This document shows positions 1 through 33,000 of a stretch of DNA of 64,000 bases, in pieces; position 1 is the stretch's first letter; every line of letters begins with the position of its first letter. Source of the DNA: Candidatus Omnitrophota bacterium. Its GTDB lineage: Bacteria; Omnitrophota; Gorgyraeia; Zapsychrales; JBDRMG01. A program made the position numbers and the translations under genes. The notes under the pieces were generated by a model. That model saw only the letters and a program-made list of their open reading frames with translations. It was not told where the DNA came from and did not search any database. Location: positions 2,339 to 66,338 of the forward strand of contig JBDRMG010000065.1 of NCBI GenBank assembly GCA_043812495.1, read 5' to 3'.

Positions 1-3000
1 GCGCTAGGGGGTAAAATTCCAGGACACACCTTTAATGTCCTTCCGTTAGATAATGACAGCATCATAGCTATTGATTTCAAAAATCGGCAAATTAAAGTAA
101 TAGGCCCGAATAACCCCGTTGATTTTACTGATGATAGAATTACTTCCGGTGATGTTCTTATAGATACATCTCCTTATGATGATGTGATTTATGCTAGCGC
201 TTGGTACAACCGCGGTAATGCCCTTACTGAATTAGGCCGCTACGCAGAAGCCATTGCCTCCTATGACAGCGCCCTTATCTACAAGCCTGATGATGCCGGT
301 GCCTTGTACAACCGCGGTAATGCCCTTACTGACTTAGGCCGCGACGCAGAGGCCCTTGCCTCCTATGACAGGGCCATTACCTACAAGCCTGATGATGTCG
401 AGGCCTGGAATAACCGCGGCGTTGCCCTTTATTATTTAGGCCGCTACGCAGAGGCCATTGCCTCATATGACAGTGCCGTTACCCACAAGCCTGATGATGC
501 CATGGCCTGGAGTAACCGCGGCATTGCCCTTCATAACTTAGGCCGCTACCCAGAGGCTATTGCCTCATATGACAGTGCCGTTACCCACAAGCCTGATTAT
601 GCCATGGCCTGGAGTAATCGCGGCATTGCCCTTAATTACTTAGGCCGCTACCTAGAGTCCCTTGCCTCCTATGACAGCGCCATTACCTACAAGCCTGATT
701 ATGCCATGGCCTGGACCAATCGCGGCATTGCCCTTCATAACTTAGGCCGCTACCCAGAGGCTATTGCCTCATATGACAGCGCCCTTACCTACGAACCTGA
801 TTATGCCAGTGCCTGGAACAACCGCGATGTTGCTAATGACGCTGCGCTCAGATTGAATAAGGCACAAAATAACAATTTATTTAATATTGACTTCCGGCAG
901 TTATTGAGCTCGGCAGTGGTTGCCGGACTTGCCTTGGTTGCAATAAATAGCGGCTTTCAGCTTATCTCCGGAGCCGGATTTGGTTCAGAATTATTCCTGC
1001 CGGCTACTTTGTTTACCGCAGGCGTGGTATCCAAAAGTAGTCCTGAAGAATTGAAAGAGAAATTATTAGGCTTACTAGCCGAGATTAATGCCTCAGTAGA
1101 GAGCTTAAGGGAGTTAGCTGACAAAGGCCAGGCCAATGATTTAAGTTCGGTTTTAGAAGAGCTTAAGGAAAAGGCAGCCAAGGCAATCAGCGCAATTGTT
1201 AACGAAACAAATGGGAATGATAATCTTGATAGTGTATTAAGGCACGATTTAAGCAATGCTTTGAATTTGGCCGGCTATTTTGATGTCTTCTTAAGGAAAG
1301 AAACAGGCAAGCAGATTGCTTCTATAAAAAGCGCCCTGCCAATGATAGAAGAAGATTTAACAAAGGCTGAAGCTATTATTAGTAATCCAAGGTTATATTT
1401 AGCCAGAAAAACTGTTGTTTCAGAAAATGAGCTTACTAATAAAGCATTGAAGGTTATTAGCCTTACTGCTCTCACCTGGCTGGGGTTAAGCCTGGCCTCA
1501 AGCGTCTTTGCCGGCCAGGGTGGGGCCGCTCTTGAATATAATCCTTGGGTTGTAATTGGTTTGTCAGCCGGGCTTACCGGCTTAGGCCTATTAACAGCTC
1601 TTCCAAAGGTAAGGAATTTTGTGAAAGAACTTTTAAGAAAAATTACGCTATCCACAGTTTTGATAACTGTGTTATCTTCATTAGCAGCTTTTGGCATTTT
1701 ATATGCCATACCAGAAGGAGAGAATATTACAACGCCTCAATTTGAAGTGAAAAACACAGATGAAGCAATCGACAGCCTCTGTGCTTATGCTGTCAGGATG
1801 CATGAGGCAGGCTACGAGGGAGAACTAGGCGGAGTCGTGAAAAGAGAAGAAAACAGCCTTTCAATTTATGTTACGGACAAGGCAGAGCATTCAGTCAGCA
1901 CTCCTTTGCCGGAAGTTGATAATGAATTCATTTGGCACATTCATCCTGAGGCTGATTTAGGTAATATAGAGAATGCCGCAAGGAGCTTACAGGTTTCAAT
2001 AGAAGATTTAGACGGTTTGCTTCTAACCAGAGAGATTGACGGAAAGGCAGTTTCTCATAAGCAGAGCATAGTAATACTTTCTGCCGAAGACAGATATGCA
2101 GCTTCTTTGGTTAATGAGCCTGATAGCCTGGATATGATATTCAGGAATATGTTTTTAGAAGACGCAGAGTCATTCGGAGAGCTATTTACTTCACCCCTCT
2201 TACGTCAGGCGGCAAGGGATGTTAAATGGGTGGGTAATCCATTAGAAGACTTTATTGAAGAACATGCTTGTTCATGGCCATTGGCTGCCAATATAATCGG
2301 CATTAAGGCAAACGTATATTATCAGGAAGAGGGCAAGACAATCGAATATGATTATACGCTTGAGTTTAACAGGAATAATGAATTGCAGGAATTCAGAAAG
2401 GAATTTAACCTAAATCATCAACCGGTTAATCAAGGCAAGGCTCCAGCCAGTGTAATCTTGAACCTGATGTTTCTTGGGTTTGGCCTGGCAGCGGCAAAGG
2501 CAGGCTCGGCTAAAGCTGATGATGGCAAAGGGTTTGAATACATAGGTGAAGCAAGAGTAACGGGCGGAGCACAGTATAGCCCTGAAATATCTATGGCAAA
2601 GATAATGAAGGGCATGAGAATTGACGGGTTTGGTGAGATGCTTTTTATTCTTGTGTTAGGCGAATACAAAGCTACAAAATCATCATTTAAATTTATTAGG
2701 ATGATAACTGCGCAACGAGCTGACGAATTAGACACAGTGCCTGAGGATAGGTTCCATGCTCATATTGATTACAGAAAGAAATTAATAATGCCGAGAGAAT
2801 TATTTAGAGAATCCGGGATAAAATTTCAAGAGCAAGTTGTTTTCGTAAACGCTGGTTTTCCGGAAGGTGAATTACGCATTTATTCGAAAAGAGATTGGGA
2901 TAAATTGGTTGACTTAAAAGTAGTAACCTTAGCCGGTTTAGGCTTGGGAGTATTTTTATTAAACCAATTTGTTCCTTCGCTGACTAATCTTAATACCGGG

Positions 3001-6000
3001 GTAGCAGCCCAGGCAGATATGTTAACTGCGTTTATAGCACTGGGTATTTTAGCCTTAGCCGGTATTTGCGTTAAGCTTCTTGGTTACTTACGCGCCGGGC
3101 CGGTTGATTGGATTAAAAATATAGAACTTCCGCTTTTAACTGTTTGTGCCTTGGCATTTATAACCAGAGTCATTAATCTTAATTACAACGGCCCATTTAT
3201 TGATGAATCTTTCTATTCTGTAGCCAAAGATATAGGCAACGTCTTTTATATTACCGGCGAGGCTTATCTGTGGCCGGTTGTTTCCAATTTCGCTCATACA
3301 ATAGGCGGGGTGGTAGGGGCGCGCTTTGTAACGGCTTTATTTGGCACTTTGACAGCAGGGTTTGTCTATAAGGCCGCAGAAATTTTTGCAGTTAAATTTA
3401 ATGCTAAGGATAATAAGTACGTTGGTTGCTTAGCTGGTTTAATCTTTGCATTGTCTGCACCTGCATTGCTAACTAGCACTGTAGCAGGTTATGATGCCAT
3501 GGCCTTTATGCTCTATGCCTTTGGCTTCTGGCAATTGACTAAAGGACTGGAAACAAGCAGCAAAAAATCACTTTTAATTGCAGCGGCGGCATTGGCCATT
3601 TCTGCTGATACGAGGTATATGTTAATTGGCTTTTTACCCGTTGCAGTTATCTACGCTATTTATTCTAGCGTCTTCAACAAAAATAAATTAACCACATTAG
3701 CCTATTTCTTATTACCTTTAAGTATTTTAGCCGGAGGTTACGTATATCTAAATCATGAACATGTGTTTGCAGCCTTAAACCATGCCCGCAATTTAGGATT
3801 ATCATTAGCTAAGGCACAGACAATCAGCTATATATTGGCCAATATTCTTGTCAGGATTGCTCCAGTTATAGTGTTGGCCGGTATTGGCCTGGCAGTATAT
3901 TTAAACAAGGCAATCAGAGATAGATCTATAAGGCAGATAACAAATATTGCGTTCCTGGTTAGCGCAGCTGTAGTTATAGCCGCTTATCATATCTGTGCTG
4001 GCAATGATTTTACCTTGAATAGGAACTTAACAATGACTGTTATGTTTGGTTCTATCTTAGCCGGGTTAGGCTTAAATTATTTCATCAGCAATTTGAAGAG
4101 GGCGAAATACATAATTATAGGCCTGCTCTTATCAGTCTTACTTATCCAGGCGAAAACAGTCGTTAATAAAGACCAAGCCTGGCCGGATTGGAGACCGGTT
4201 GTTAGCAGCGTGCATGATTTAGATATACCAGCTTATTGTAATTGGCGTATTTGGTGTACGACGAATAATGGCGGAAATGTCTGGCAACTAAGGGCTGAAT
4301 TTGGCAAGAGGGTAGATGAAGCCTCTCCCTGGTATGCTGATAATCCCATGGATGTTTTAAAGCAGGCCTCAGGCAAACTTATTCCAGTAGTTGTTGGGCC
4401 AATACCAGGAACAGACCTTGATGTCGGAGATAAAATTTGTGGATATGTTGTAAGGCAAGTTGTTGTTATCCCTGGCTATTCGAAAATTTATATTCTTGAA
4501 TATCTATCTGTTTATGAGTCAGAACAGAGCGCTACGCAGCAATCACAGCCAATCACTCAGGTCACCACCAACACCACCTCCCCAGCCGAGAAGAAAGAAA
4601 CAGAAGGCACCAGCGTAGCTGCGGAGATTAGTCAACCCCACGTATACTTATTGCCCCACCTACATTTAGCGCCTTCCCAGAAGCGAGATGTATTGGACAA
4701 ATTAGAGCAATTAGAGAGAGCAATGGAACAATTTTCTACCCCTGCATCAGACTCTATCTTAATGTTTAAAGCAGACATTGAAAATATATTTGCCAGCAGC
4801 CGCGAGATACTTGCTCAATATAGCCGCGAGGCAGAAGCTATTAAACAAGTTGTCAATAATCCTGTTAACAAAATAAGACGCATCGGGGTAGAGGCTGATC
4901 AAGCATATGTTTATGATTTTCTGGAAGGCGCTCAATTTAAATTACACAATCTGGAAAGTATGATGCAGTGGGTGGGCTTTGAAGATTATAAACAAAAAGC
5001 CAAAGACCTTTTACTCGTTATTTATGGCCCTGTCTTTTATTTATACGTTACAGGATATGAGCCTATCGCATCAGATACTATAGAGATAATAGGGGTAGAA
5101 TCTAACGATTTAATGTTTAGTCATTCGGTAGTTTTTAGCTCATTGGTTAGGCATTACAATCAGGACCTGCCGCGTTCAGGAGCAATGCAGCCATTGCTAA
5201 ATTTGATCGAGAATATGTTGGGCGATAAAACGAAAATCCCTATGCAAAGCGAAATTGATAGTGCAATTTCTGCGGCGCGTAAAGACTCTACGCTTATAGC
5301 AAATTCACAGTTATGGTTAGTTCGAGACGTAAAAGGGTGTATAGAAGGTTTTATAGACATAGCAAATGAACGCGATGAGTTTGTTTTTTCAAAGATACAG
5401 GCTGATTCTACTAATATATTGATTGTGCGAGGGAGAGGGCATGAGTCAAAACTGCGGGAATTGTTTAAGGAAGGATTAATTGAGATAGATTCTCTCGATT
5501 CAGGGCCCTTGCATAAGGCAAATAATAAAGAATCCGGCTTTATCAATCCAGACAGCAGTCTGCAACTGAGCGAGAATCAATCTCAGCAGCCCTTCAAGCA
5601 GAGCTCACTACTACCTTTATTCTTACTCAGCCTTATCTCAGTAAGGCCAACGAGAAGACACCGCAGGAACTTTGCCGCAACCAGGGCAACTACAGGAGTC
5701 AGAAGAGAAGGTTACTTACGCGCCGGGCCGGTTAAGGGTTTGATTTTGAGCATCCTTTTTGCCGCAGCTTTATATATCTCGCCAGTTTTTTCCACCCCCG
5801 CATATTCAGATAATTCAGCAAACCAATCAGCTTACAGCGATACAGTCAAAGATGTGATTAAGAATATAAGAGACAGTTATTTTCCTTTTCCAAATAATGA
5901 TTCCATGGGGACAGTCAGGGAATTTGACGATTTAGACAATATCGCTTCCAACATAGATGCCTGGGCAGAGTTTATAAATTTCTGCACATGGATGTCTCAA

Positions 6001-9000
6001 AAAACAGAAGACGTGGAGGAAAAAGCCCTTTATGACTCCTTGGCCAGCGGAGTTATCAATTTCGCCATAGCTACACAAGATGAAAGAGGGGCTAATTTTA
6101 CGAGACGGCTGTTTATGCCGGCTTCGGCTTCCCAGCCTTATGATTTTAGAACAGGCTTTAATTCTAGCTTATGGTCTGCAATTGTCAACAATTACAGGCT
6201 TAATCCCAGAGAAAAGCTTTTAGAGCCTATGCAAAGTTTTACCCTTTGGCTTCTTGACCAACAGCAGACAGATACAGATACAGCTTATCAGGCAAGCTTA
6301 GGAGCGTTTAGCCGGGGAGATGTCTTTTATAATCCTGATAATCAATATGACCCTGAAGATGGGTATATTCCGCCCGCGGTCATAGATTCTCTTCATTATA
6401 CTGTTGTGGCTACCTCACGCGCTATGGGCTACATGGAGAATTATTACGGTATCATTCAATATACGGATACAGAGTTAGCCTTAGAAATCCAAGAGGCTAT
6501 CAAGCTGGCTAATAATTGGCTATTGACACAGTATCAGGACTATGGGATGTATGCCTTCTTTAATGTAGGCTGTGACCTCTACGGAAAGAACCTGCCTTTC
6601 GCTGGATTTCCGGATTTATTGTTAGAGTCTCAGGTCCTGCCTCTCTATGTATGGGATTATATAAGCTGGCTGGGAGTTGATTTGACTTCCTACAAGGGGG
6701 GCGTAGATTGGCTTATCGCCATATACGAGAAAGAGATAGAGTTTAACGCTAATAATATTAAAGGGTTTTCAAGAAATACATTTGGCGACCCTTCCCAGGA
6801 GAGCGTCGCTTCGCACAGCACTCTTATGGCAGCAGGGACGCTGGATTTATTAGGCGATAGCGCAGAGGCCTCATTTTACAGCAATGAAGTTAGCAAGTTA
6901 ATTACTGATGAGGGAGGAATAATATTTAGCGCAAGCAATGCCGGCAACCTGCCGTTTCCTTCCGACTATCATTATTCTTATGTCGTATCCGGCATCTGGT
7001 ATGTATATTCTGCCTTTGGCGTAAACGGCTTTAATCCTTTTGAGGTTGAGGATTCAATAATTACTCCTGAACAGCCGTTTATACTTCATCAAAATTATGC
7101 CAATCCGTTTGGAGGGGAAGGCACTACCATTGAGTATGAATTAAAGGAGCCTGTCAAAACAGTAGATATAGAAATCTTCAATATCCTGGGCCAGAAGGTT
7201 ATAGAATTCAGAGACTTGGAAAACGGGAAAGGAATTCACGAGATTAGATGGGATGGCAAGGACGGCAATGGAGAAGGCTCAGCCAGCGGTATTTACTTTT
7301 ACAGGTTAAAGGTTGACGGCCGCATAATAGAGTCAAAGAAGGCAATGTTGATTGGCGCAGCAGAAGATGATAATGCGCCGGTATACGGACAGGAAGAAAC
7401 TTCTCCAACCCTACCTCTTTTAGCTGGATTACTTCTGACTCCTGCGATTGTTACCAGAAGAAGAAAGACAGGCATTTTAAAGACTGCTGTTATGTTAGCC
7501 GGCCTTGGCTATGCCAAAGGCATTGGGTTTGTAAACGCCTTAGCAGAAATTATCCAGGCCAGATTCTTCCATAAACGAAGAGCCGCGCTGCGCAGGCTGG
7601 CTTCCAAGGCCGTCAGCAAAGGCGCTTTCGTGTATAACAAAATAGCTGAAAGGTTAAAGGAATTGCGGTCTCCTCGCTCTGTCGCTGCTGAAACAGAAAC
7701 AGCTCATTCCTCAGGTGAGGCTTTGACTTCATTGGCAGAAATCGAAAGAGCTATTCTTTCGGCTGAGGAAATCATCATTCAAGCTAAGAAACAAATAATA
7801 AAATGGGCGCTTGGCATGTCGATTCCTTTCCTATTTTTGCTTCAGGTATTACGCGCAGGTCTGACAAACGCGGACGCATATTATTTCTTCCCGACGAGAT
7901 ATATTTTAATTTTGGCTTCCCTGGCGGGACTTATCATGACGGCCGTGGGTGTTGCACGGCAAATCAGGAATTATAGAATTTTGCGTAGTCGCGAAAGGAT
8001 TGTCCGGGAATATAAAGGCATTATTGCGGAAAGCAAAAATTTACTTGCATCTCTTGAAAGAAACGGAGCGGGAGAAGGCGCCCAATCCGATGCCGACCAA
8101 ACTCTCCACGCCAACTTCATCACGCCAGAGATTATTGCGGTCATCGGGCTGATCCTTATGATTGCCGGAATTATGTATGCGCTGCGACTGTCAGGGACCT
8201 GTCCCGCTGGTTTTGCCAAAGGCAAAACTACCAGTGGGACAGGTCCCGAAGCCGCTATGAAGATAGCCTCGGGACCTGTCCCTGCTTTTCTGATTGTGAC
8301 GGGGATAACTTTGGCGGGGACGGGGATTTTAGCGAACAACAATCATCGCGACTTGCCGAGGACTTTCAAGAATTCAGCGGCAGGAAGGATGGGAATTTTA
8401 CCGAAATTTCCAAGGGACAACAGATGGCGGTCGCCGGATACGATACAATCAACCCCGCCTTCCCTGGCGGCATGGAGGAATTTATCATCCGAGGGGTCAG
8501 CTTTGACAATGGGATCCCTCCGGAGCGGTTCGACAAAGAACGCCTGGTCTTTGATTGTTTCCGCGATCTTCAGCACAGTGGCTTTTGGGATAATTTTCTC
8601 GAACTTGGGACGGTTGATCACTTCGACGAACTCATCAAAAATTCTGTCCGATAGGACCAGCGTAAATGTTTCCTGGGAGAGTTTATCGAGAATTTTGCCG
8701 CAATGGGAATACGGCTTCAGCAGGCCGGAAACAACAATGTTTGTGTCAACAACGGCCTTGAGCATATTGGTCTTGACGGTAGGCTTTTATTTCATCGTTA
8801 ATTTCTTTTTGAGAAACAAGATGTCTCCTAAGACGCTTGCGAATATCCTTAAAGATACCCTGCCATCTTTCGCGAAAGGTTTCGTTGTTAAGCTTGCGCG
8901 CCAATTTCAGCTTAAATCTCTTAGGCATGCGGTCAACGATTTTCTCGACCTCTTTTTCCGATATATTCATAGAATATTTAATCACGGTTTCTTCTCCTCC

Positions 9001-12000
9001 GATAAATTAAGTATAGTCGCTTTCTCTTGGCCTGTCAATAATTACTCCCCGGTTTCTAACCGCGATTCCCGCGAACTCCAGGCTAATTTCATCATGCCGG
9101 CCATAATGGCCGTCGCGGCGGTCGTATTGATCATGTACGGTATGATGGTAATAGCTGGCTTATTTAAGAATCAAATGCGCGCCTCTTCCATCCAGTGCCA
9201 GGGCCCGCCTAAAGGCGAGGCACGCCCGCCGGCGAAAACGAGAATTTCCCCCGCCCTAGCCATCCTCGCTCTTTCCGCTGTTCCTGCCTTCATCATTCTT
9301 TTCGCCGTCTTCTCCGAACACAGCCTTGCGTTTATGCCGGTCGCGTTGTCTGATATTGCTTTGCCGGGATTGATGGGAGTAATACGAATTACCTCCGCTA
9401 ATAAAAATGAAATCATTGCCGAAAACAATGGCATCACAGATCCCAATCTCATCTATCCGCAAGACACCATCCAGATGAAAGGATTTATTCTTCCGTTAGA
9501 TCTTTTAAGTCATCCTCTTGTCGTGTTATTGCTCATCGTTGCGGTTGCCGTTCTAAGCTTTAACAGAGTGCGCGAGAGACTCCTGACCATCGGACTTGGC
9601 GCTTTACTCCTATTCTCGGTGTATGCGCTCACGCCGTCCTATGACTCCTCTGATAAGACCTCAAGAATCCCGGCAGGATTGATACAGCAAATTCCGGATC
9701 ATTCAGGCATCCCGCAGGCAGGGCAACGCGCATCCGATTCCCCTGTTGTCAACGGAGCTACCGAAACTCCCCAAGAGGCCATTGTGTCTTATGTCATTAA
9801 ATCCGGCGACACCCTCACGGAAATCATCGAACGGGAACTCGGCGTCTCGGCCTATCGCCCGGTTGTCAATGGCCAGATGCCCTATGAAATCATTGCCGAA
9901 AACAATGGCATCACAGATCCCAATCTCATCTATCCGCAAGACACCATCCAGATGAGATCATTCCTTGGAGACATTTTCACGCCCGGGACCCTAGCGATCA
10001 TCGCCTTTGCTCTTATAGTTGCCGGAATTATATGTGTTTATCAACTCTTAAAAAACCGCGCGGCGGTTAAGGACATGCTTGAAACATCCCTGCAGCGCCA
10101 GGGCCCGCCCGCATCCGCCGTTCCAGCGCGAGCCGGGGTTCTCCCAGCTTCATCCAGAGGCGGACGCCGATGGCGACAGCCGAGACGACCGGTCATTTCG
10201 AGCGGATCTAGATGGGAAGTTTTCGCTTTTGCCGCATTGCTCATCGGGTTTATCTTCTTCTTTAAACCTTCGGCTGCCAAGGCTTCGGATTTTGTCGAAG
10301 ATCAAGATGGCAAGATCACCGCTGTTAACGTGGAATCCGGAGACACCTGGGGTCATATCACGCTTGATTATTACAAAACCCAAGGCCAAGGCGTTGGACA
10401 GCTCTGGGGACCGGACGGAAAGGCGTATACGCTTTGGAGTGAGGTTTATGGGCCAGGTTCAGATTATACAGATATGGATCACATAAGAACCGGCGAAACC
10501 ATTGATCTGACAGGACAGAGTCAAGAGGCAGGGGCAGCTAAATCTCCAACAAAATCCAAGAGTATACAGAAATCCGCAAGAGTCAAGAAGACCGAACCAA
10601 ACAAACAAAATCAGTCAAATCCAGCTAAATCACCTGTCAAATCCGCTCAACCAGAACCAGATTCAACGACAAAACCAGTGAAGAATTCTTCGGCCGGAAT
10701 TTCTCCGGATAGCTTGAAAGACAATTCGAAAATCCAATCTCAAGACAGCGCGAAGGCCGTTGATTCGACTCAAAACAAAAATGCCAATCTATCAAAAGAC
10801 AGCACAAAGGACAAATCATCTCAGAATAAAGGGTCCTCAAGCGGCAAGATCGGCGACGGACAATTTGTCTGGAAATTATTCGGCCCTATCGGAGCTGCTC
10901 TTCTCGCGATGATGGTCGCTGGAATCGCCTTTATTCTTCTTCGAGGCAGAAGCAAGGCAACGCCAAAACAAACAAAGAAAGAATCTGCAGCTACGCCTAA
11001 TGCCGGAGGAGAAAAGGCCGAAGACGTTCCTGGAGATACAGAAGAAGGTACGCCAATAGTTGAAGCTGCAGTTGTCGCTGGATCACAAGAAGCTTCCCAA
11101 ACAGTTGAGCCTGCGGACACGCAAGCCGTTGCTGCTGAAGGAACCGAAGTAAAACCCGAAGAGCCAGGCAATGGGTCTTCTGCTGAAGCTGAAGTTGTCG
11201 CTGGACCACAAGAAGATTCCCAAACAGTTGAGCCTTCGGACAATACTCAAGAAGAAAAACCACAAGCCGTTGTTTCTGAAGGAACCGAAGAAAAATCCGA
11301 AGGATCAGACAACGGGTCTTCTGCTGAAGCTGCAGTTGTTGCTGGATCACAAGAAGCTTCCCAAACAGTTGAGCCTGCGGACACGCAAGCCGTTGTTTCT
11401 GAAGGAACCGAAGTAAACTCCGAAGGATCAGACAACGGGTCTTCTGCTGAAGCTGAAGATTTCGTTGAGCAGGTACTGAATCATGACATTAGCGATCCCC
11501 TTAAGGATCAAAAAGGAAAGCAAGATGATGAACCTGGCGATGCCTCCGACACCCAAGGAGAGGAAACTTCTGGAATCGCTTCAGATGAACAAAACGCCGG
11601 AGATTTTCCGGTATCCGTTGAAGTTCGGGACGAAAAGAATACAGAAGCCGGAGTCCAGGGGCCTGGTCAGGAACCGGTTCGGGAACCGGCGTCTAGTGAT
11701 AATCCTGAAACCGGAGAACAGGACTATATTCCTTTGTGGATGATGGATGAGGATCCTCTCGGCGCAGTAGAGGATGGCTTCGAATTCCCAGAAGAAATAT
11801 CTGATTACACGGTCGAAGCACCGGACGCAACCGGAAAAATAGTCACATTCGCCTCCGGCCAAACATACTACATGGCCTATTACGATATGGAAACCGTCCT
11901 CTCGGACATGGCCACGCGGATTACCATAAAAGAGGACGGCAACGTCGTCGTTCGATTCGATGGAATAGGAAAATCTTATTTCTCGAAAGAACTATTTACC

Positions 12001-15000
12001 TGTTTTGAAGATGCCAGGAAAAGCTTGGAGAAAGTGAAATTGTTACAAGAAGTGGAAACGGAAGACAGAACCGGAGAAAAGAAAACATTCCGCCTTGGAC
12101 AAACGGTTTACTATCCGGGCCCGGAAAGAGATAAAATCGTATCCATAACTGTGGAACAGATACGGCAATATCCGGCGTTTATTCCTTGTTTTCACGAATT
12201 TAGGACCCGGACCAGGATCATCTCCCAGGGCGAAGCTTATCCCCCGATCCTGCTTTATACCGACCGCCAGGATGCGCAACAGGAAATCCTGACTTTATCA
12301 GAGGACGACAACGCCTTGGCTTTATTCGGCCATGACCTTGGCGGCATGAATCAAGCGCTGGCTGTTATCGTTGTCCTGGTCCTTGCGGCTTATGCCTATC
12401 GCTTCTTCAAAAACCGCGCGGCGGCGAAGGAAATACTTGAGACATCGGTTCAGCGCCAGGGCCCGCCTAAAGGCGAGGTAAATCCGCCGGCGGGAATAAA
12501 GATCTCCCCCGCCCTAACCGTCCTCACCCTCGCCGCCAGACTCCTCGTTCCCGCCGTTGCCCTTGTTCTTATCGCTAAAGAAATGGTCGAGCTTATATTA
12601 AACGGAACCTTCGGCAATCCGCAGGCCCTGATAGCCATAGTCGGCTTTGCGGGGTATCCTCAAAGATTTCACGTTGACCCAGAACAGGCATTATCAAAAA
12701 GCGAGAAGTTGAGAAAGCGCGTAGACGGTTTAATCGAAGAGAAACTATTGGACAAAGAAACGGCGGAAGCAGAATTTCAAAAACTCATCACAACGCGCAA
12801 TCTTCTCGGAAAGGCCAAGCGGCAGGAAAGAGGACAAGGAAACGAGGAAAAAGTGAACGCGCTGGAAAAAGAAATCTCACGCGTTAATGGATTAATCGCC
12901 CAGGTCAATAAATACAGGGGCCGCAGCAGAACCTATTTGCCGGATTCAAGAAACGAAAATAGCTCACTGCACGCGAATGCCTTATCGCCACTAGAAATTA
13001 CCCTTTTCGCCCTCATCCTCGCCCTTGCCGCGGCTGTATTATATCTGGCCCATCGATTCTTCAAAAACCGTAAAGTGCTTGATGCATCCATCCCGCGCCA
13101 GGGCCCGCCTATCGGCGAGGCACGCCCGCCGGCGAAAGCGAGAATTTCCCCCGCCCTGAAAATCCACACCGTTCTTCCCATCCTTAATTTTTATCAATCC
13201 GCCGCCGTACATATGCTTATAGATTTTGCATATTTATCTTATTGGCTGATTATCAAAGGGTTAATCAATATCGATGTGGTCTTGGGCATTGCCCATCTAA
13301 TCGGCAGAAATGAATATGATATACAGGATACAAGAAGCATGTTGCACGAACTTTGGTCCAAAATAAGAAACATCCGTTTTGTAACCACGAAGACGTATGA
13401 TCTCAGCAGGCTGAGCGAAGAAGGTCGAAGAATAATGGTAGATTTTGCTTTAGCCAACCAAGATACAAAAGTTCTGGATATCCGGTATCAAGCCTTATTA
13501 AAAACCCACCCTGCAGAAAATGATAATAAGACGACGACGCCTCCCCAAGGCGGCGGGTTAGGATTGTCAAAGATTGCCGGCATGTTTGTGAATCACCAAA
13601 TATCCTTAAGGCGGGCCTTTGCATTGGCGAAGAGAGATTACGCGGGCGGACTTAAATACTCCACCAAAGCCAACCTTGTTGCGGAAATCATCAAAACCAT
13701 TATCAAGAAAACAAGTCAAAAAGCCGCCGGCCTCATCCGCGGGCCGACATCCTGCGCTACAGCGCCAACTGGCACTTTAACCTCTAAAATCTATACTATC
13801 ATCCTCACGCCTGAGTCTGTCGCGGCCATCGGGCTGCTCCTTATGATTGCCGGGATTACTTATGGGTATAAATTATTAGGGACAGGTCCCTCTGGTAGTT
13901 TTGCCTTTGGCAAAATTAGCGGGACAGGTCCCGAAGCCGCTATGAAGATAGCCTCGGGACCTGTCCCTGTTCTTCTTTCTCTGGCCGCTATCGCCATCCT
14001 GATTCCCGTCTTCATCATTTTCGCCTCCCCACCCGAACATATTTTTGCGCTTATGCCGGTGATGGCTCTCGGGCAGATTGTTTCAAATGACAGAAAAGAA
14101 AGCGTATGGATCATTCCTCTTAGACCCGGCTGTCCCGTAAAGTTCAACATGAACAAAAAACAATTATTTGTTCAGGCAGGCGGTTTTCTCTTTACTTTTA
14201 TTCAGTATACCATCGAGAGGACCATTCAATATAGCTCCATGCTTCATCGTCCTCAGGAGGGAGGTTGGCAAGTCTGGGTTCCGTTGATCCCCATAGGAGA
14301 GACCATCCATGTGGGCGGTAGAATCCAAGAGGAATATCCCACTAACATGGTAACGCCCGTTTCGGATAAGACTGTCTCAAGTAGACATTTGGCCGTAACG
14401 ATTACGCCAGAGGGGTTGGCGCAATTAACAGACCTTGGGTCTGAAAACGGAACCTTCATCCATGCTAGAGCTGAAGAGGTCTCGGACCTTGTGGATATAT
14501 CGCCGGAGGCGGTGCTTGAAATCTTGAGACCATCAATGCGTCCGGAGTTGCAGCAAATAAGCGTGCTTGTGGAACTTTTCAGAATCAGAAAACTCGATGA
14601 ATATAAGGAGTGGTCTGCCCAGGGCGAAGACTCAGATGAAGACTCCGCGCATGCCTTGGTTGTATTGCCCGGAGAGAGTATGCTCTTGATTCTTGCCATG
14701 ATACCTCTTGTGATTCTGGCCATGATGATTCTGGAAATGATTCCCTCATCCAGACAGCATCATCCTGAGCCTGACACAACACGCCATGACCGCGAATCCG
14801 CCACCTTCGGTTCTTCTGTTGCCGCAAAAATCCAACAAGATATCGAAGCCATGCATGCCCGCAACCAACGCTCACGAGAGCAAGCCCATGACTCGGTGCG
14901 CAGCCTGATCGCACCAGATCCAGCATTGCTTCCGATCCTCATTGCTTTATTCGCTGTTATGACTTTCCTCATGTCACGTGACCTTAAATCCGCTACCTTT

Positions 15001-18000
15001 GGCTCCAAAGAACTTGAAAAAATGCATCAAGCCCGTGAAAAGGTCTTTGACTATGATGAGGAGTCACGAGAGCAAGCCCATAAATCTGTGCGCTCTGGAT
15101 CAGGACAGACCGCCTACGGCTTTGTGACGGGGGTCTCTTTATCACTGGGAGTTTTGGTTTTTGCCATTTTGACACTCATCGTCATTCGCGCCTCCATCAA
15201 GAGGGTAAATGAAGGTAAATTGGGCAAAGGAACAGCGCTTTCTGTTTACCTCCTTCTGGCAGGCCTGACCTTCGTTCTGGGCATCCTAGGGATCCGGCAA
15301 TTCATACCGGATTCGGAAGAAAGAACAGAACGCTATTATAATCTCAAAGTCGGCCAAAAGCCGGAAGAAATTGACCCCACCTTGGTTCATGAGGACCAGG
15401 CGGCTATTCTCACCCAAGGAAGACACGCCGAGACAAGCAATGTTTGGTACAACATGTGCAAGGTCATTGTTGCCATTGACACGACAAACCAAACGGTTGT
15501 GTTTGGTCATCTGACGCCTTGGATTGGCGATAACGGCCTGGAGAAAACGCCGCAGGAATATCAAGCTTTAATCGATAACTTAAAAGATGTTATGGAGTCC
15601 GAAGGTATTATTCAGAAGAATCTTGTCATCTATCTTGTGGCTAATCACAACACGGATATTACTTTGCTTGAGGAAATGCTCAAAGAATCTTTCCCGGGCC
15701 GGATCCGCAAGGTGATTTCGCCTTTTGACAATCAAAGAGAAATTTATGTTGCCGTCTCCAATGAAGAAGAGGGAATAGAAGTAACATCCGTTGGGCAAGA
15801 AGACAATGTTCCCAATAAAGTATTAGTCATAGATCCTCACACCGGACGGATTATTGAAGAAAGGGACGGGGCTTGGTATATGCTTTATCTTTATATAAGC
15901 GCCGGATTGGCAGCCTATTACTTATTTGGCCATGGCGGTCTTTCTGCTATTGAAAGCCGGTCAAGAAGACGGAAAAGACAATCAACAGCTGATAGGGACC
16001 GATTATATCACGGCCTTGTTTTCCCCTGTCTCACAGGCACCATCATCGAGATGGCCGCGGTGGTCCTTCTAGCTGGGCTTGGGGTTTGGGCGGCCCAAAG
16101 AAGAAGGTCTAGTAGGCTGATTGATTCGGAGAATGGAAACAAGGAAACAGAACTTGACGGAGAAGAGTTCGTAGCCGCTCAGTTCTATCGACTCTACGGC
16201 GCTGACAAGATTAAAGATTTTAGCCCGGCATTCACCATTTCTGAGGCGAAACGCTTACTGGAAGCCGGCTTAGATGACATGGTGCAAAATCTTTACAAGC
16301 AGTATGGGGAAATTATACCTCCGGAAATTAATGCTCCTGAATTACGAGAATTGGTCCGCGGAATCCCTGAAGATCAGCTAACCTTTAAGAACGTGGCCCA
16401 AGCCTTTTCTGGTTATTTAAGAAAGAAATATGATCTTTATAGCAGAGGCAAAATGGACCGCGCTGCAATTATGGATCTGGGTGAGCAGGAGAAAAATATT
16501 CTTCGGTATGTCTTTAGATTATTCAGCGACAATATCCAATACGACCATCAGGGCGCAGACGGCCAATGGAAATCAATACTTTCCCATGCCATCGAAGGCA
16601 ATCCGTACATTGAAGGTAGGCCGCGTACCTATATCTGCGAAACAGCATGCGCTTTGGCCATAATGGCCCTGGAAGAAATAGGCTTAGGAGCAACGCCGGA
16701 TAAAAAACCCTCTAAAATCGGCATCCACAAAAACTTTAAAGGAATAGACATGAGCCAGGGCGGCCATGTGGCTGTTTTATGGAAAACCGTTAATGACGCC
16801 GGTATTTTTGATCTGACGCAGGGACTGGTAGATCATGATGGGCGCTCTTGCCTGGCGAACATAGACATCAATCATGAAGTTCTCAAAATCAAGCAAGCTA
16901 ACGGTCAAGAGCGATTCGTTCGCTATGGCAGCAAAAAAGATTTAGAGCCCATTCAAGGTGAGACCTTTAAAGATCTTCTCGAAGACGAAAGAGTTTGGGC
17001 CAAATACCATGATTTGACTAATAGGAACAATGCAATTGATTTTCACGCGTCTGACAAAGGCAGCATTTTGCTGCAGTCACAGAAAATTTTTAAGGAAGCA
17101 GATGCTTTAAGTAATCTTCCGGTCGTTCGTCGAGATCCGATATTAAGTGAAAATCTGAAGAATCTCAAAGCCACTGCTCAGGCTAACATACAAAGTCTCA
17201 ATAGATCTGATCGAATGAGGAATGCGTACGAAGCCCTGAAGCGACACACAGACACTTTAAACCGAATTCATCGAGTATCCAATGGGAACCATGAGCTTGC
17301 TGAAAAATCCTACACAAAACTAGCGCAAGATATAAAAGACACAATCGCTTCGCTTTCAGCCGACTCAAGGTTTATAGGAGCCACCGCAAATGATGTCAAT
17401 TTCAGATTAATAGCAGTCGACGCATACGGAAATAAGCGCGAGCGAAAAGTCGGTGGTCAGGGAATCATTGACGTCCTTGAAGATCTTAAGAAAGATGCCC
17501 AAGAACATGCTTTGATAAGCTGTTATTTCTCTAGATTTAAAAAAGCAAACGCGAGATTCCAACAAGGAGAAGACGTATTTCCAGATCCAAAGGCCGGGAG
17601 TAATTTCCAAGCGGCTTTAAGCCAATATATTTCTCTTGAGAGAGAAATTAAGAAAACTCTGCGGACCCCGGGCATTTCCAATCCAAGCATTATTCAAAAC
17701 CTAGAGAGCCTACAAGATACCATCGCTGCAAATAAAGATGCCGCAGCCGATAACATAAAAACGCTTGGCCAAACTCCACAAATGGAATCATCCCTCGGTC
17801 TCATCCTCCCCGGCGTGACAGGCACCATTATCGATGTACTCGTAGTCGCCCTGCTCCTGGCCGGGCTTGGGGTTTTGGCGGTTCAAAGAAAATGGTTTTC
17901 GAAACTAGGGGATAGGATTAGCAATGAGCGTTTAGCGTTTAGCGTAGAGCGTATAGTTAGAAATACTAAACGCTATACGCTATCTCCTATCTCCTATCTC

Positions 18001-21000
18001 CTATCCGCTATCCGCTATCCGCTATCCGCTGTCTGCTATCTCCTATCCGCTCCACGCTATGCGCTCTACGCTACTCTTCTCATAGCGGCCGTTGTTTTAG
18101 GCGGCTCGACCGCTTTTGGCTTGAGTTTTGCGATCATGCCGTTTTTGGCATCCATACGCTCGGAGGATTCTGATCCGGACCGGGAATCCCAGACGACGCA
18201 CGTCTCGATGATCCTTTCTCAGCAAGATGAGGACTTCGTTCTTGCTATCGGAGAACAATCTTTCAGAATACAAAAGAATTTAATAAAACAGGAATTTGCG
18301 GCTATTACTCAGAACGGAAAACAGATACAAGACGCGAACGTCAGACTCACCATGCACAATCTCCTTGCGTTTAATTATTTCTTCTGGCTGTATCAGCAAA
18401 AACAGAAAATAGCCAAAGGATCCGCTGATTTTATGGGCGATCTTTATGCGCGCCTAAGCATTACGTATGACCAGAAACGCGTTATTGTCCGTTACGCTTA
18501 TGGGGACGCGCCGCTTGAAGACCAGAGCGAGCATGCCTGGAGTTATGGGTTTGAGATTAACCGTGCCACCGGAGGCTATAAAGCCGAGATTCAGGACAAA
18601 GGCCTCGAGGCATATGAGAAAAACATGCTTTTTAACCGGTATGTCGAATATTTCTTAAGCATTTTAGCGACAGTCCACCGCGTTTTGGATCCAGCGACAG
18701 AGAAAGAAATGATGAGGCTTCTAGAAAAGGCATATTCTTCGAATGATTTCACAGGGTTTTATCGCCGCATTCCCGGCGAACCGGAAATCGAAGAAAAGAA
18801 AGGCGATAGCGGTCGACCAAACCTTACTTTCGGCGGTCTCATTCTCCCTGGTCTCACAGGAACCATCATCGAGGTACTCGTAGTCGCCCTGCTTCTGGCC
18901 GGGCTGGGGGTGTTGGCCCAGAAGAGAGGATGGTCCCGACGCTTTCTGAATAAAACAATTAAGGTAGTCGGGATCCCGACTTCAACAATTTCATTTAAGA
19001 GAACGTCGGGATTCCGCAGGCTGACTAATTCAGAGAACAGAAACCAAAGCACAGAAACCAAAGAAAAGAAAACCTCACCCTACTCCTCCGCCAAAAAGAA
19101 ATTCAGCAAAGCCTTCCCACTCATTGTTATTCTCATAGCCGGTGCTTTGGTGGTAATGTTTATGGATATGCGCGCTGATGTTTATGCATCTGATGATGTT
19201 AAATCTTCAGCCTTAACAATGATCCATATTCTCATAGCCACCACAGCCTTTATACTCTTGCCTTCCTTGTTGCGCTTGCTTGGATATGACAAATGGGCTG
19301 CGCGCTTAGAAAAAGTCTCTTTTGTCGGAATATTTGTGGGCCTTGTTGGACTTATGTCTGCTTCAATTTTTGTCCCCGCCCAGGCCCAGGCGCAGACAAA
19401 TCCGTTCAACACATTCTCTCCCGATGAGCCGGATGATGACGGAAATAATGGTCTTTATGGGGATGACGAGACCAGCAGTCTTCCAGCGACATTTATAACA
19501 CAAGATTATTTATTAGATTTGATTCAAAATGCTGAATGGGGAGTTAAAATATTTACAGAAGATCAATGGAATAATAATGAAGATTTAAAGGGTTGTGAAT
19601 ATCATTATGGAGGCGCTGTTGGTGTTCCTGCGACTCAAACAATGTATTATGCCGGTACCATCGCATCCACAGGGCATTTGTCTCATGAGACAACGCATGT
19701 TCTTCAATCATCCTTAACTCAGGAAGAGCTTCTGGAAGCCTATGACGGATTAGCGGGAGTTATCAGAAACCAAGAGGCTAAAGACATTCTAAGTAAATTA
19801 ATGGATGCTTATTTAACGACCTACAATAAACTTCTAATAGAGTGGGTAAACAGCCAAAACCTTCTTACCGATGAAGAAAAGAAGACGATATTGAAATCCA
19901 ATGGAGCTGATGAGACGTTTGCTCTTCTCTTTGGCATGTTTGTGGGAGCTTGCCAGCCAAGCGAATCGAATCTGGCGACCTGCCATCTTGATGAATACGG
20001 AGTGGCCAGACTGACTGAAATTTTATTGGAAAGCGAAGAAGAGAACGAAGCAAGAGAATATCTTGCTCGTTACTATAGAGATTTAGGTTACGATGAGAAT
20101 TTGGTTAATAACTTATTGCAGACAAACGGTACCCAATTAGGGGCGAATAGCTCAATAGAGCCAGAAGCTTCTTTAACTATCTGTGACTGGTTTATGCCAG
20201 GAGTGGTAGTTGGTGCGGAGGCAACTTCTGCCCCTGCCCAGGCGCAGGATATTATGCCAGTCTCTGGAGAAAAAACAGATACTGATTCAGATTCGACTAA
20301 GAACGATAATCGAAATTTTAAAACAAATCTACTTAATACTTTAAGAAGAATTGGCAGTTCGGCTTATGAAAAACCAAAACCTTATCAGGTGGCGCTAAAT
20401 AATCACCACGGGAGCGCAGATCAAAGCTTAAGAACAGAAACGAGTTCATTGAATCCAAGCGATCGCTATTGTGTAATAAAACAAAACAGAGCTCTTTCTA
20501 TTAATAACCAAATGCAAAAACCTCCTCTTCTTATGCCAGATAGTATTGTAACATTCCAGAATCTTGAAGAAGCGAAAGACTATGATATTCCAGAAGGCTG
20601 GCCCTATGCTGTCTTGCAGTTCAAAGAATGGCCTATTTATTACATTAAATTTATTGATAATTTCATACAAGGATTGGCTTTTGACCGGATGGTTTATTAT
20701 GTCGAAGTAGAGCCAGGCGTTCTTTTATTTGATCGTGAACTAAGAGCGAAAGAACAAGATATGAAAACATTTGGCGAGGGAGGACGTGATTTTCACTTAA
20801 ACGATGTAGTCGCATTCTATAATGAAACCAAGAACAAAAATTGCCCATTGAATATCATGGAGTTCAGATTGCTCGCGGAGTTTATAAATGCAGGTTTGAT
20901 CCTTCGAACAGAAAATGGATACCAACCAGCTATGGAAGCGGCTATTATGAGCACTGATTTGTTAGGAGAAGAGCAAGCGCTTAAGCAGGAATTTGATCAT

Positions 21001-30000: not shown

Positions 30001-33000
30001 TTGCGCGATCTGGGCAACAGCGATCAAAACAACAAAGACGACCAAGGTGATTGGGTGCGCAATCCTTGGACAGGGGAGTACATCTCTAAGGTCTGGGACT
30101 TTGGATTTAACACAAAAGTAAAATATATCGGAAAAGACGAAAACGGCAATCCCCGGGCCTGGCCAACGGTTGGGCGCTACTTAGAAGATATCGTGAAGGT
30201 TTTTGAACTGGTGACAATAGATCAGCGTGACTACAATTACAGTGCTGTACGCAATTTGCATAACTTAACTTATTTCCACTTGGATCAGCGGGCCGGACGC
30301 ATTGAAACGGATTTTCTCTTTGGTCTCAACCGCTCCTGGGCCGTTGTTTGGTCTTATTTTGAACCCAAACTTAAATTCTGGGATCCGAAAAATAAAGATT
30401 ACAATGCCGAATTTGCCGCGAATTACACGCCCGGTTATCGCGATCCGTTGTCACCCGTACCGGAATATGACGGAAAGAAATTCAAGTATGGCCGGGAATT
30501 CAGAGAAATGGGGCCTATGTATAAATCGGCCAAAAATATCCATGAATTTCTCGTAGCCATGGACTATAAACTTTTAGAAAAAATCATCGGCCGCTTGTTC
30601 CCCTCCAAACTGGCGTTCTTTAAGAAAATGCGCGATCCCAATCGAATTCAGCCCGTCATAGGCATTGACGCGGATGAAGATTTTCATGATTGGGCCATCG
30701 AATTGGAGCAAGTCCTCAAACACGACACAAGAAAATACGGCCTGCGCATTAAAGATCCGAGCGTGCCTGATGTGCTTGAAAGATTTGAAGTTCAGATCAC
30801 GCAGGTCTGGAGTCTGGTCCTGATTCTTAAGAACTATTATGACCTTCTCTCGGACAATGAGATCCTTGATCTCTTAAAGTTCAAATTCCCTGAAATTACG
30901 GATTGCACATTGATCGATCCGGATGACGATAACTTAAGCGACGATGTGCCGAGCCAATCCGAGCTTGCGCCCAAACGGAATATTTATGAAAACAATCCCT
31001 GGCTGCAGTTTGCCACCCAGGTGGAAGAACAGGCGATTTACCTCGAAACAGGCGAACGGACCTTTTATGTTCGCGAAGGCTGGGATACGTTCCTCAATAC
31101 GTTTATCAGCGATGAAAAAGCCGATCTTCTTAATCACCGTTACGGCATTACAGGCATCAAGCAGGATTTGATCAATTACAAAAAGTTCTGGGAAGAGATG
31201 TGCGGGCCCCATCAGCCTGCGGCCGAATTATATGATAATCTCTTTTGGGTTAAAGGAAGGGATTTTGCCGGAAAAACATTCGATGATTATGAAACAAACA
31301 ATACAAAGGAAAATGGTTTTAATCGCAGAAATGACGTTCATCGGTCGGTTGTCAACGGCTGGATTCGTGATATCAAAGTCGAAGGCCGCGAAGTGATCAT
31401 CCAATACAGACTGAAACTTCCTTCCATTGGACGCTATAAGGAAAGTGTTCTCAGCCAACCAAAATTTATTCCGGCCACAGAAGATCTCAAGAAAAAATTG
31501 GAAATTGCCGAAGACCTAAAGGATATCAGAGACAAGTATGAAAAGACTATCCTCAATATTCATAGCTACACCCTGCCTGTCGATGGCGGTCCGTTTTACC
31601 AAAGATTGCTGGATTATCTGTTTCCCTCAGACCTTCATGTCTATAATCTCGATGCGGTATGGACTAAACGCTTAACCGACGCGCTGACTATAGAAGAAGC
31701 GCAAGACTTGAATGACCTATACGAAAAACTGCTTGAACACGAGGATCTTATCCAAACCCTTGGCGAAATGGCTCAGGTGCGCGGGGCCCGGGTCGAGTCT
31801 TTAGACGGCAAGCATAAAACGCTGGCCGCGGCAACGGAGCGTGACGAATTTGCCCTTCTTGGGACTATTGGCAATCTATTGATTAACACCATTAAACCGC
31901 AATTGGTTGAGCAACTTGGCCTGGATAATCAATTTCATGTTATTCAGACATTCGATAACGAAGCTGAGCTGTTTGAAAAACTAAAGCAGATTCAAGAACT
32001 CTTCTTCCTGTTAAGAAACACCAAGGGTCTTGACGCCAAGGTGCCTTTGGCCAAAGCCGGTATTGAAAATTGGCGCGGCAACCGCACGCGCATCGTGCAG
32101 TTCTGGTTTGACCTGCTTTCTTTAATTGGCGTGGACGATGGTTTTGATCCCCTGAAAGGGCCAAGCAAAAAGCCATTCAGGACCGTTATGTCCCTCATCG
32201 AGCATCTCAAGAAGGAAGAAGAAATGTCTCCGATCCTGGCGGAGATCGCGCCTCATCCGCTTTATCCGGATGCGGATATGGATGACTGGGGCTTTATGTT
32301 AAGAAACACCGAATACCTTGAGGGCGAAAAGTTTTCCGACGCCAAGGCCCATGCCTTCTCCACAGGCCGCTTTGGCCGGGATTTCCAGGAAGGGCTCAAT
32401 GTGACGGATTTTGCCTGGCTGACTTCCTTAAATAACGAAGATATCATCCAGGCCACGTATGAACCAACAGGCATCAGCAAAGACGGGAAACGCGTGCATG
32501 TGACCATGAGGGTTTATGATGAGGGCAGGCTCGAAGATATGAAGGAAGTCAAAGGGCGGGTGGTCTTTGAAAATCCGCGTATTTTAGATCAGCTGACAGG
32601 CGCCTATATCAAAGGCATGATCCCTATTGATGATGAATACTTCTGGTATATCGTGAATGAATACGATGAATACTTCGATGACGTAAAACCCAGCTGGAGC
32701 GGATTGGATATTACCTCAAAGCATAACAAAGTTCCCAGCAAAACCATTATTTACCTGGCCAAGAAAGGCTCCGATAAAGCCCTTCGCTTTGCCGAAGCCG
32801 TCAGTCTTAAAGACTATGAAAAAGGAAACGGAGAGCTCAAACAGGAAGTGACCTATTATGCCGGCCGTCAAGTCATCGCGAAAGAAGTCCAAACCATTGA
32901 TGTGACAAGCGCCTTTGGCCGCGTGATCGAAAAAGAAAATAAGCAAGCCGGCTGGAAAGCAAAATTTCCGCTCACGACCGAAATCGACGGGAAAGACGTA

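Follow-up and report, generated by a model that had tools for sequence, protein, structure and literature searches.

The 64,000-nucleotide stretch of contig JBDRMG010000065.1 analyzed here (the window) lies within a single giant open reading frame (ORF), and this ORF contains an internal copy of the type-A C-terminal domain (CTD) of type IX secretion systems (T9SS), a domain that usually makes up the last ~90 residues of T9SS-exported proteins and ends the proteins of nearly all of its close relatives. The CTD is preceded by a helical passenger domain and a signal-peptide-like helix. It is probable that nucleotides 5737-7467 represent an intact secreted-enzyme cassette that was captured in frame by the gene of a giant membrane protein, and that the CTD now serves as a spacer and not as a T9SS signal.

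Identity and position of the C-terminal domain

The internal domain is a canonical T9SS type-A CTD. In frame +1, nucleotides 7084-7460 encode QNYANPFGGEGTTIEYEL...FNILGQKV...WDGKDGNGEGSASGIYFYRL...SKKAMLIG followed by AAEDDNAPVYGQEETSPTLPLLAGLLLTPAIVTRRRK, and an earlier note on this DNA, made from the letters alone, had recognized a near-textbook T9SS CTD here. Profile searches bear this out. TIGR04183, the model of the T9SS type A sorting domain, matches residues 2362-2452 (nucleotides 7084-7356) with 42.3 bits and an E-value of 5.7e-11 (curated cutoff 23). BLASTP of the domain against 22 database relatives gives 34-45% identity (E 1e-13 to 5e-21), and identity to CTDs at genomic loci is up to 47%. 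The hallmark motifs P..F.L.QNY.NPF, NILGQ.V, WDG.D..G..ASG.Y.YR and KK.ML are all kept. The lysines of strand beta7, K2446-K2447, are retained, and residue 2452 is Gly. In the CTD alignment the domain deviates at three near-invariant positions of the N-terminal motif, with P replaced by A at position 17 and N-P replaced by G-E at positions 22-23.

Pfam describes the same domain in different terms. Its best model is FlgD_ig (PF13860, 33.3 bits, cutoff 27); CHU_C scores 24.1 bits, and Por_Secre_tail (PF18962) is below threshold with 17.4 bits against 27. Of the two families that the earlier note had named for this domain, TIGR04183 therefore detects it and PF18962 does not. Several genuine terminal CTDs are likewise annotated by PF13860 only; one of them, P0004, is described by NCBI as a "T9SS type A sorting domain-containing protein".

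Structure prediction gives a confident seven-stranded beta-sandwich, as had been expected for residues 2362-2452. The AlphaFold2 model of the domain alone has a pLDDT of 84.3 and a pTM of 0.75, and the CTD part of a whole-module model has a pLDDT of 86-96. In Foldseek searches the best E-values belong to the immunoglobulin-like (Ig-like) domains of FlgD, while the best query-normalized TM-score is that of the PorU CTD 6za2 (TMq 0.64); the translocon-bound NucA CTD 8glk_D has a TMt of 0.65. A sequence-profile search of the PDB gave a similar mixture of FlgD and T9SS CTDs. The fold alone cannot separate FlgD_ig domains from T9SS CTDs, but the sequence evidence can.

The CTD is present in one copy and is internal beyond doubt. 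A profile made from the CTD alignment matches residues 2350-2451 alone (103.9 bits), and no further diverged CTD copies or paralogous modules were found with it in the 21,333 residues, even at E <= 1000. The domain ends at residue 2452, and the ORF has at least 21,333 residues. As the earlier note had said, the frame continues without interruption; its estimate of several more kilobases was too small, since at least 56.5 kb of ORF (at least 18,881 residues) lie downstream. Frame +1 has 0 stops in 21,333 codons, and the other five frames have 846-1529 stops each. An ORF lister reported only seven short ORFs from the 64,000 bases because the real ORF overruns both window ends.

The C-terminal boundary of the CTD matches the true protein end of its relatives to the residue. 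In 19 of the 22 protein relatives the alignment stops at query I2451, exactly one residue (K or R) before their stop. The terminal K or R is found in all 20 aligned terminal relatives, whereas the giant ORF has Gly2452 (GGC) at this position, and the position of the relatives' stop codon is occupied by codon 2453, GCA (Ala2453). A scan of genome representatives gave 57 loci, all matching just the CTD motif WDGKDGNG. Of these loci, the 29 strongest (L001-L028 and L030; E <= 4e-9) are without exception terminal and end 1-2 residues past the equivalent of I2451, and the next one, L029 (7e-9), is internal. In the non-terminal genomic cases (n = 14) the match is weak or partial. Among them are proteins with short tails, as flagellar FlgD would have, and others are generic FlgD_ig domains of Verrucomicrobia, Streptomyces and Gammaproteobacteria (L029, L054, L053, L057) that have neither the QNYPNPF start nor the KKM.LLK end.

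Among close relatives an internal position is thus found in none of the 29 strongest genomic loci and in one of the 22 protein matches. The single case, P0014 (L058 1868-3634), is the one other canonical type-A CTD that was found internally. It occupies residues 96-182 of a signal-peptide-bearing protein of 588 residues on an ENA metagenome contig, where 406 residues follow the ...SIKMIK motif; its gene neighborhood is uninformative.

The nearest relatives of the CTD come mostly from lineages of the FCB group (for example Zixibacteria, Ignavibacteriales, Chlorobi, Cloacimonadota, KSB1 and Bacteroidota), and this suggests an FCB-type donor. One ordinary protein with a canonical terminal CTD (...KKLILLK and stop; L011 8951-10348) is from a metagenome-assembled genome labeled Candidatus Omnitrophota (DATJEJ010000217.1). 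The many long ORFs that overlap on both strands of its contig suggest a high GC content and possible mis-binning. Should the label be correct, Omnitrophota would have terminal type-A CTDs. A contig of an uncultured bacterium (L019 2390-12417) has six CTD matches in about 10 kb and so carries a dense cluster of type-A CTD genes.

The passenger domain

The relatives of the passenger are standalone secreted proteins, which supports the interpretation of the region as a captured cassette. The passenger is almost an orphan. A full HMMER pass over 1.84 billion representatives found only P0023 (E 1.8e-6) and P0024 (E 3.1e-5), and an alignment-based search from the passenger family added two weak matches. 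Both P0023 and P0024 are ordinary secreted proteins with N-terminal signal peptides. P0024 aligns to query residues 2046-2346 and ends there (...VNPFKP and stop), at the point that corresponds to GFNP of the query just before the CTD lead-in. The passenger/CTD junction is accordingly a native protein end in this relative. The C-terminus of P0023 is a dockerin, and members of the passenger family bear different C-terminal anchoring domains.

The passenger may be a glycosidase. P0023 reaches 24.4 bits with the Pfam model GH127_cat, for which the cutoff is 24.9. AlphaFold2 models the passenger as helical with low confidence, and Foldseek retrieves the GH127 structures 3wrf and 4qk0 at a probability of just 0.57. 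At low confidence, these models point to a domain that is probably a glycosidase-like (alpha/alpha)6 barrel and possibly GH127-like. Of the annotated cargo of TIGR04183 proteins, glycosyl hydrolases form the largest class (PMC11205867).

Signal-like helix, anchors and charge distribution

The helix ahead of the passenger has the layout of a signal peptidase I site, with a hydrophobic core of 14 residues, Pro at -4, Val at -3, Ser at -1 and Thr1932 at +1. It lies inside the ORF and not at the protein N-terminus. Signal peptidase might cut between VFS and T1932, and the basic loop of residues 1882-1912 would double as the n-region of the helix.

Two similar short anchors bracket the cassette. 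In a systematic scan of all 21,333 residues, a short Pro-containing hydrophobic stretch followed by T-R-R-(H/R)-R/K was found at only two sites, residues 1868-1889 (anchor 1) and residues 2471-2489 (anchor 2). The former is just upstream of the signal-like helix and the latter closes the cassette. The earlier note had called anchor 2 a second tripartite signal. A first site does exist upstream, but the identity of these segments as sorting signals did not hold up against the curated C-terminal sorting-signal models. Anchor 2 is under the cutoff in all of them; its best score is with Synerg-CTERM (13.4 against 22.5 bits), and this match covers only the generic hydrophobic-plus-basic tail. Anchor 1 matches none of the models. 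Both anchors are internal, and neither is at a protein C-terminus.

The distribution of charges argues that both anchors cross the membrane. From the signal-like helix to anchor 2 there are 34 K/R and 78 D/E, whereas residues 2485-2598 (114 residues) have 22 K/R and 10 D/E. Strong transmembrane (TM) helices resume at residue 2599. Anchor 2 would then be a stop-transfer anchor that obeys the positive-inside rule and returns the chain to the cytoplasm. The coordinates of these and other features are collected in Table 1.

The sequence just past the CTD has an unusual codon composition. The linker, anchor 2 and TRRRK (window 7357-7470, 38 codons) have a GC content at third codon positions (GC3) of 0.237, which is in the lowest 2.1% of such windows of the ORF, and the Arg codons in TRRRK are AGA-AGA-AGA. 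The low GC3 would fit if formerly non-coding DNA downstream of a lost stop had been recruited, but it is weak evidence for this.

Table 1. Features of the window. Positions are nucleotides of the window and residues of the frame +1 translation; KD14 and KD19 are Kyte-Doolittle hydropathy values, KD19 being the best mean over 19 residues.
Feature	Window position	Residues	Strand	Basis
Single reading frame, runs off both window ends	1-63999		+	frame +1, 21,333 codons, 0 stops
PMT_2-like GT-C glycosyltransferase block, ~10 TM helices	from ~2905	~969-1388	+	25.2 bits, just under cutoff 26.1
Anchor 1: short Pro-containing hydrophobic SSLLPLFLLSLISV (1868-1881) and RPTRRHRR (1882-1889)	5602-5667	1868-1889	+	KD14 2.11, KD19 1.04
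Basic loop, 31 residues, predicted cytoplasmic	5644-5736	1882-1912	+	10 K/R against 1 D/E
Signal-peptide-like helix GLILSILFAAALYISPVFS, then TPAYS	5737-5793	1913-1931	+	sequence reading; KD19 2.01
Passenger, ~420 residues, TM-free, acidic, all-helical	5794-7050	1932-2350	+	HMMER, AlphaFold2, Foldseek
T9SS type-A CTD homolog: lead-in DSIITPEQPFI (2351-2361) and seven-strand Ig-like beta-sandwich (2362-2452)	7051-7356	2351-2452	+	TIGR04183, FlgD_ig, models
Acidic linker AAEDDNAPVYGQEETSPT, 18 residues, no counterpart in terminal relatives	7357-7410	2453-2470	+	alignment
Anchor 2: LPLLAGLLLTPAIV (2471-2484) and TRRRK (2485-2489)	7411-7467	2471-2489	+	KD19 1.38, 14-residue core L2471-V2484
Basic, helical, TM-poor segment, predicted cytoplasmic	7468-7794	2490-2598	+	charge, hydropathy
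Copies of the L(I/V)(L/F)PG(V/L)TGT TM motif	~15985-16110, 17800-17925, 18835-18960, 21424-21549	~5339, 5943, 6288, 7151	+	sequence reading
Complete glycogen synthase GlgA (GT5+GT1)	~45160-46770	~15054-15589	+	TIGR02095 417 bits (cutoff 328)
GlgC-like NTP-transferase (NTP_transferase)		~16221-16379	+	Pfam/NCBIfam
ManA-like domain		~20929-21034	+	Pfam/NCBIfam

The giant reading frame

The giant ORF encodes a polytopic protein with several recognizable enzymes. Its domain content was taken from Pfam and NCBIfam scans of the whole 21,333-codon translation. A hydropathy scan of the same translation gives about 75-90 hydrophobic segments. Whole-ORF topology derived from hydropathy is unreliable, in agreement with West-Roberts et al. 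(2023, bioRxiv 10.1101/2023.11.21.568195), and topology was used for the local region only. TPR repeats are present at residues ~60-270, and LysM and FHA domains are found as well.

What looks like another complete enzyme module (residues 969-1867, window ~2905-5601) is directly upstream of the cassette. The GT-C block is followed by a TM-free segment of 479 residues (1389-1867, window to ~5601) that ends at anchor 1. In GT-C glycosyltransferases the last TM helix opens into a periplasmic C-terminal domain. By analogy, residues 1389-1867 would be the periplasmic C-terminal domain of the GT-C block, closed by anchor 1.

A complete glycogen synthase, GlgA, is embedded end to end farther downstream. 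Glyco_transf_5 scores 220 bits and GT1 73.5 bits, and TIGR02095 is covered through model position 476 of 477. The native first strand KKLNIVAVSPEVAPFSKSGGLGDV is kept, with only the initiator Met replaced, and the native end is kept too; a low-complexity linker and a TM helix come right after it. The complete GlgA shows the same end-to-end construction as the cassette, which supports in-frame capture of complete genes as a general building principle.

Other parts of the ORF are TM-free or repetitive. Window ~25162-40368 (residues 8388-13456) encodes 5,069 TM-free, strongly acidic residues with a net charge of -239, and the sole recognizable domain in it is an M23-like peptidase at residues ~9149-9263 (27.3 bits, cutoff 28.7). 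A TM motif of the form L(I/V)(L/F)PG(V/L)TGT(I/L)IE(V/M)L..LLLAGLGVL followed by basic residues occurs in four copies and may mark the boundary of a repeated module. The first copy is under the cutoff of GPS-CTERM (16.3 against 28 bits), LAETG (14.8 against 30) and VPLPA-CTERM (13.4 against 25.35). Another TM type also recurs, with L(H/Q)AN(F/A)(I/L).P ahead of it, at ~8128-8184, 9100-9156 and 12991-13047 (residues ~2710, 3034 and 4331), and suggests that TM modules were duplicated within the ORF downstream of the cassette. GC is 0.39-0.44 in window 1200-7800 and 40001-48000 and 0.46-0.50 elsewhere, and GC3 is lower there too. These two low-GC stretches hint at a mosaic composition of the giant gene.

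The giant protein itself has no detected relatives in the region of the cassette. Among 5.8 billion clustered proteins, residues 1899-2500 (602 residues) have CTD-only matches and no relative of the giant protein, and residues 2453-5500 (3,048 residues downstream of the CTD) have zero relatives. An exact 34-mer that spans the junction has 0 matches in JGI metagenomes.

Origin of the cassette

The preserved module ends suggest how the cassette arose and how it may work. In the favored explanation, the signal-like helix, the helical passenger of about 420 residues and the CTD would have been joined in frame to a polytopic protein of at least 21,333 residues. The native stop would have been lost, with Gly2452 now at the terminal K/R position, and translation would read through into the 18-residue acidic linker, anchor 2 and TRRRK. 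During co-translational insertion by Sec/YidC, the basic loop would stay in the cytoplasm and the signal-like helix would open the Sec channel, which would lead to export of an acidic segment of 539 residues (passenger plus CTD). Once outside the cytoplasmic membrane, the passenger and CTD would fold; anchor 2 and its cluster of Arg residues would halt transfer, so that the chain returns to the cytoplasm. The CTD would then serve the exported enzyme as an Ig-like stalk or folding unit close to the membrane, and not as an outer-membrane export signal.

There is good support for the earlier note's proposal of module ends kept intact after fusion. The end of the CTD coincides with the protein end of its relatives and the end of the passenger coincides with that of P0024. 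On the N-terminal side the cassette begins with its signal-like helix, and GlgA provides a further case within the same ORF.

Negative results around the cassette bear on the age of the fusion. There are no flanking repeats at its junctions, and promoter-like and terminator-like sites are near the shuffle expectation, with none at the junctions. A recent horizontal insertion was considered and rejected, as there are no flanking repeats and no sharp break in GC or GC3, and relic or internal expression signals were rejected on the basis of the shuffle expectation. The fusion is therefore not recent, or the donor was of similar composition.

Several observations weigh against capture of the cassette or against the role proposed for its parts. 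Neither GC nor GC3 changes sharply enough at the cassette to mark an insertion. Homology of its signal peptide to those of P0023 and P0024 is not demonstrable. No orthologous giant genes were found in the protein searches. Both anchors are marginal as TM segments, with best KD19 values of 1.04 and 1.38 and 14-residue cores that contain prolines, and AlphaFold2, at low confidence, did not model anchor 2 as a helix. The hydrophobic helix and TRRRK that had been noted after SPTLP are thus present as sequence, but the helix is a marginal TM segment. In addition, the CTD may have residual signal competence, since it keeps its functional C-terminal motif with the beta7 lysines and the T9SS of P. gingivalis tolerates short C-terminal extensions. 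An 8-His tag added to PorU and polyhistidine tags on PorZ and PPAD leave T9SS function intact there, whereas replacing the last residues does impair it (PMC11285876). Because such short extensions are tolerated, the non-terminal position alone does not disqualify the CTD.

Alternative explanations

The internal CTD could be a working T9SS signal or PorU-type site. A T9SS would recognize the exported loop, and a cut between passenger and CTD would free the passenger for release or for attachment to the cell surface, with the CTD left on the giant protein. This is quite unlikely. The CTD is well preserved, is above the TIGR04183 cutoff and keeps the beta7 Lys motif; the His-tagged PorU, PorZ and PPAD do not block T9SS, and one report describes PorU cleavage as sequence-independent (PMC4804311). 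However, the domain is unlikely to be a T9SS signal because the terminal basic residue of its relatives is lost and the three near-invariant motif positions deviate, because it is about 18 residues from an inner-membrane anchor and tethered to more than 18,800 further residues, and because an internal position is exceptional among its close relatives. T9SS is described as confined to the FCB superphylum (PMC11205867), no literature link between T9SS and Omnitrophota was found, and the architecture of the ORF is Omnitrophota-like. Pfam and NCBIfam scans found no T9SS components, sortases or above-cutoff peptidases in the 64-kb window, which holds only this ORF. These components are absent from the window and the terminal K/R is changed to Gly, and nothing positive speaks for the earlier note's idea of an internal site of processing or targeting. 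A different kind of processing is possible if the product is a membrane-threaded polyprotein. Signal peptidase I would cut between VFS and T1932, and a second cut in the acidic linker or anchor 2, made by another protease or sorting enzyme, would yield a near-native secreted protein with a terminal CTD. The textbook c-region after a 14-residue h-region and a basic n-region would fit such cleavage, as would the two unusually short anchors, unique in the ORF, and the acidic linker of 18 residues exactly at the former native end. Possible cleavage of giant proteins into smaller polypeptides has been raised by West-Roberts et al. (2023). On the other hand, neither anchor fits a curated sorting-signal model, the only peptidase domain in the window is the sub-threshold M23-like one (27.3 against 28.7 bits), and an uncleaved signal-anchor fits the sequence equally well. 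The polyprotein is unlikely, though it deserves somewhat more weight than a working T9SS signal. It is improbable, as much so as the T9SS signal, that the fossil gene ends of such a polyprotein are in use, with internal signal peptides and short sorting-signal-like anchors as points of processing, and that the excised near-terminal-CTD protein reaches the surface along a T9SS-like or hitherto undescribed route, in a lineage not known to have a T9SS.

The remaining alternatives concern the identity of the domain and the integrity of the sequence. There is little chance that the domain is a generic internal FlgD_ig-type Ig-like module that was never a protein terminus and that resembles CTDs only through a shared superfamily. 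FlgD_ig is the best Pfam match while PF18962 is under threshold, the best Foldseek E-values are to FlgD, and internal FlgD_ig-type domains do exist in Verrucomicrobia, Streptomyces and Gammaproteobacteria. Those domains do not have the QNYPNPF and KKM.LLK motifs that the query keeps, however. The closest relatives (34-47% identity) are all terminal CTDs, and FlgD-type matches are partial and weaker by 1e5 to 1e10. TIGR04183 is over its curated cutoff, and the alignment stops exactly at the termini of the relatives. Least probable of all, and very unlikely in itself, is that the in-frame continuity is an artefact, by which an assembly chimera or a sequencing error joined a normal CTD gene to unrelated sequence. 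The flanking giant-protein sequence has no relatives in 5.8 billion proteins and the junction has a low GC3 (2.1st percentile), as might be expected of such a join. But a frame of 64 kb with zero stops cannot come from chance joins. The frame is kept on both sides of the cassette, the composition is within the range of the ORF, there are no junction repeats, and independent work has documented giant ORFs that combine many TM helices with complete embedded enzymes.

Significance

The capture of a secreted-enzyme cassette would bear on how giant genes arise. Giant genes of bacteria, with 20,000 codons to more than 100,000, have been recognized only recently and are almost entirely uncharacterized, both in their origin and in the envelope layout of their products. 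The cassette would be an unusually clear molecular fossil, in which a sorting domain that is otherwise strictly terminal has kept its native boundaries inside a giant gene, together with a signal-peptide-like helix and a probable enzyme. It suggests that giant genes grow at least partly via in-frame capture of whole genes, secreted-protein genes included, and that the topogenic signals taken up in this way find new use in leading the product to and fro across the membrane. T1932, the junction at residues 2350-2362, G2452 and anchor 2 are landmarks for studies of topology or polyprotein processing. For T9SS biology, the ORF is a natural experiment on the function of an internalized type-A CTD.

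Comparison with known systems

The CTD belongs to the same family as the T9SS type-A CTDs of RgpB, PorU, PorZ and F. johnsoniae NucA and has the same motifs, beta7 Lys-Lys and seven-strand Ig-like sandwich. The likeness extends to type-A cargo, as the passenger has a signal-peptide-like helix ahead of it and is probably glycosidase-like, as in the commonest cargo class. Unlike those CTDs, it is not C-terminal, has Gly for the terminal K/R, is followed by at least 18,881 residues and has a membrane anchor 18 residues downstream. T9SS is not expected in the host if the host is a member of Omnitrophota. FlgD is similar in its PF13860 score (33.3 bits, the best in Pfam), its Foldseek E-values and its membership of the Ig-like superfamily, in which FlgD_ig-type domains also occur internally. 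In contrast to the FlgD hook-cap protein, which has about 140-230 residues and is encoded in a flagellar locus, there is neither a FlgD N-terminal domain nor a flagellar context here, and FlgD proper gives only partial matches, which are far weaker than the ones to terminal CTDs.

The anchors and the predicted topology have parallels in other systems. C-terminal sorting signals (LPXTG/sortase, PEP-CTERM/exosortase, Synerg-CTERM and GPS-CTERM) share with anchor 2 a short hydrophobic segment and an Arg/Lys cluster, with a small motif that contains Pro and Thr (here SPTLP) ahead of them. Unlike them, anchor 2 is internal, has no signature motif and has no cognate sorting enzyme in the window. Flavivirus polyproteins are processed at internal signal/stop-transfer pairs, for example at the prM/E/NS1 junctions. 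The order of basic loop, signal-like helix, exported domain and stop-transfer segment with positive residues on the cytoplasmic side would resemble these and other polytopic proteins. The setting here is bacterial, and the likeness to flaviviruses is a functional analogy without homology.

Overall the ORF resembles the "Archaeovorin" giants of Omnitrophota, and it is known here by its domain architecture and without sequence relatives. Archaeovorins carry GT5 glycogen-synthase-like, GT1 and TPR domains, sugar-phosphate enzymes and many TM helices (West-Roberts et al. 2023), and such giant proteins reach 147,155 residues (2026 preprint, 10.64898/2026.06.07.730766). HEAT repeats and a divergent SecA_DEAD, which also belong to Archaeovorins, were not detected in the 64 kb by Pfam or NCBIfam, and the ORF extends past both ends. 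T9SS-type CTDs, sorting domains and FlgD_ig are not mentioned in either the 2023 or the 2026 preprint, and in this respect the ORF differs from the described giants. It shares with them a size above 10,000 residues (at least 21,333), about 75-90 hydrophobic segments, GT5, GT1 and TPR domains, sugar-phosphate and sugar-nucleotide enzymes, and cell-wall-binding and -degrading domains.

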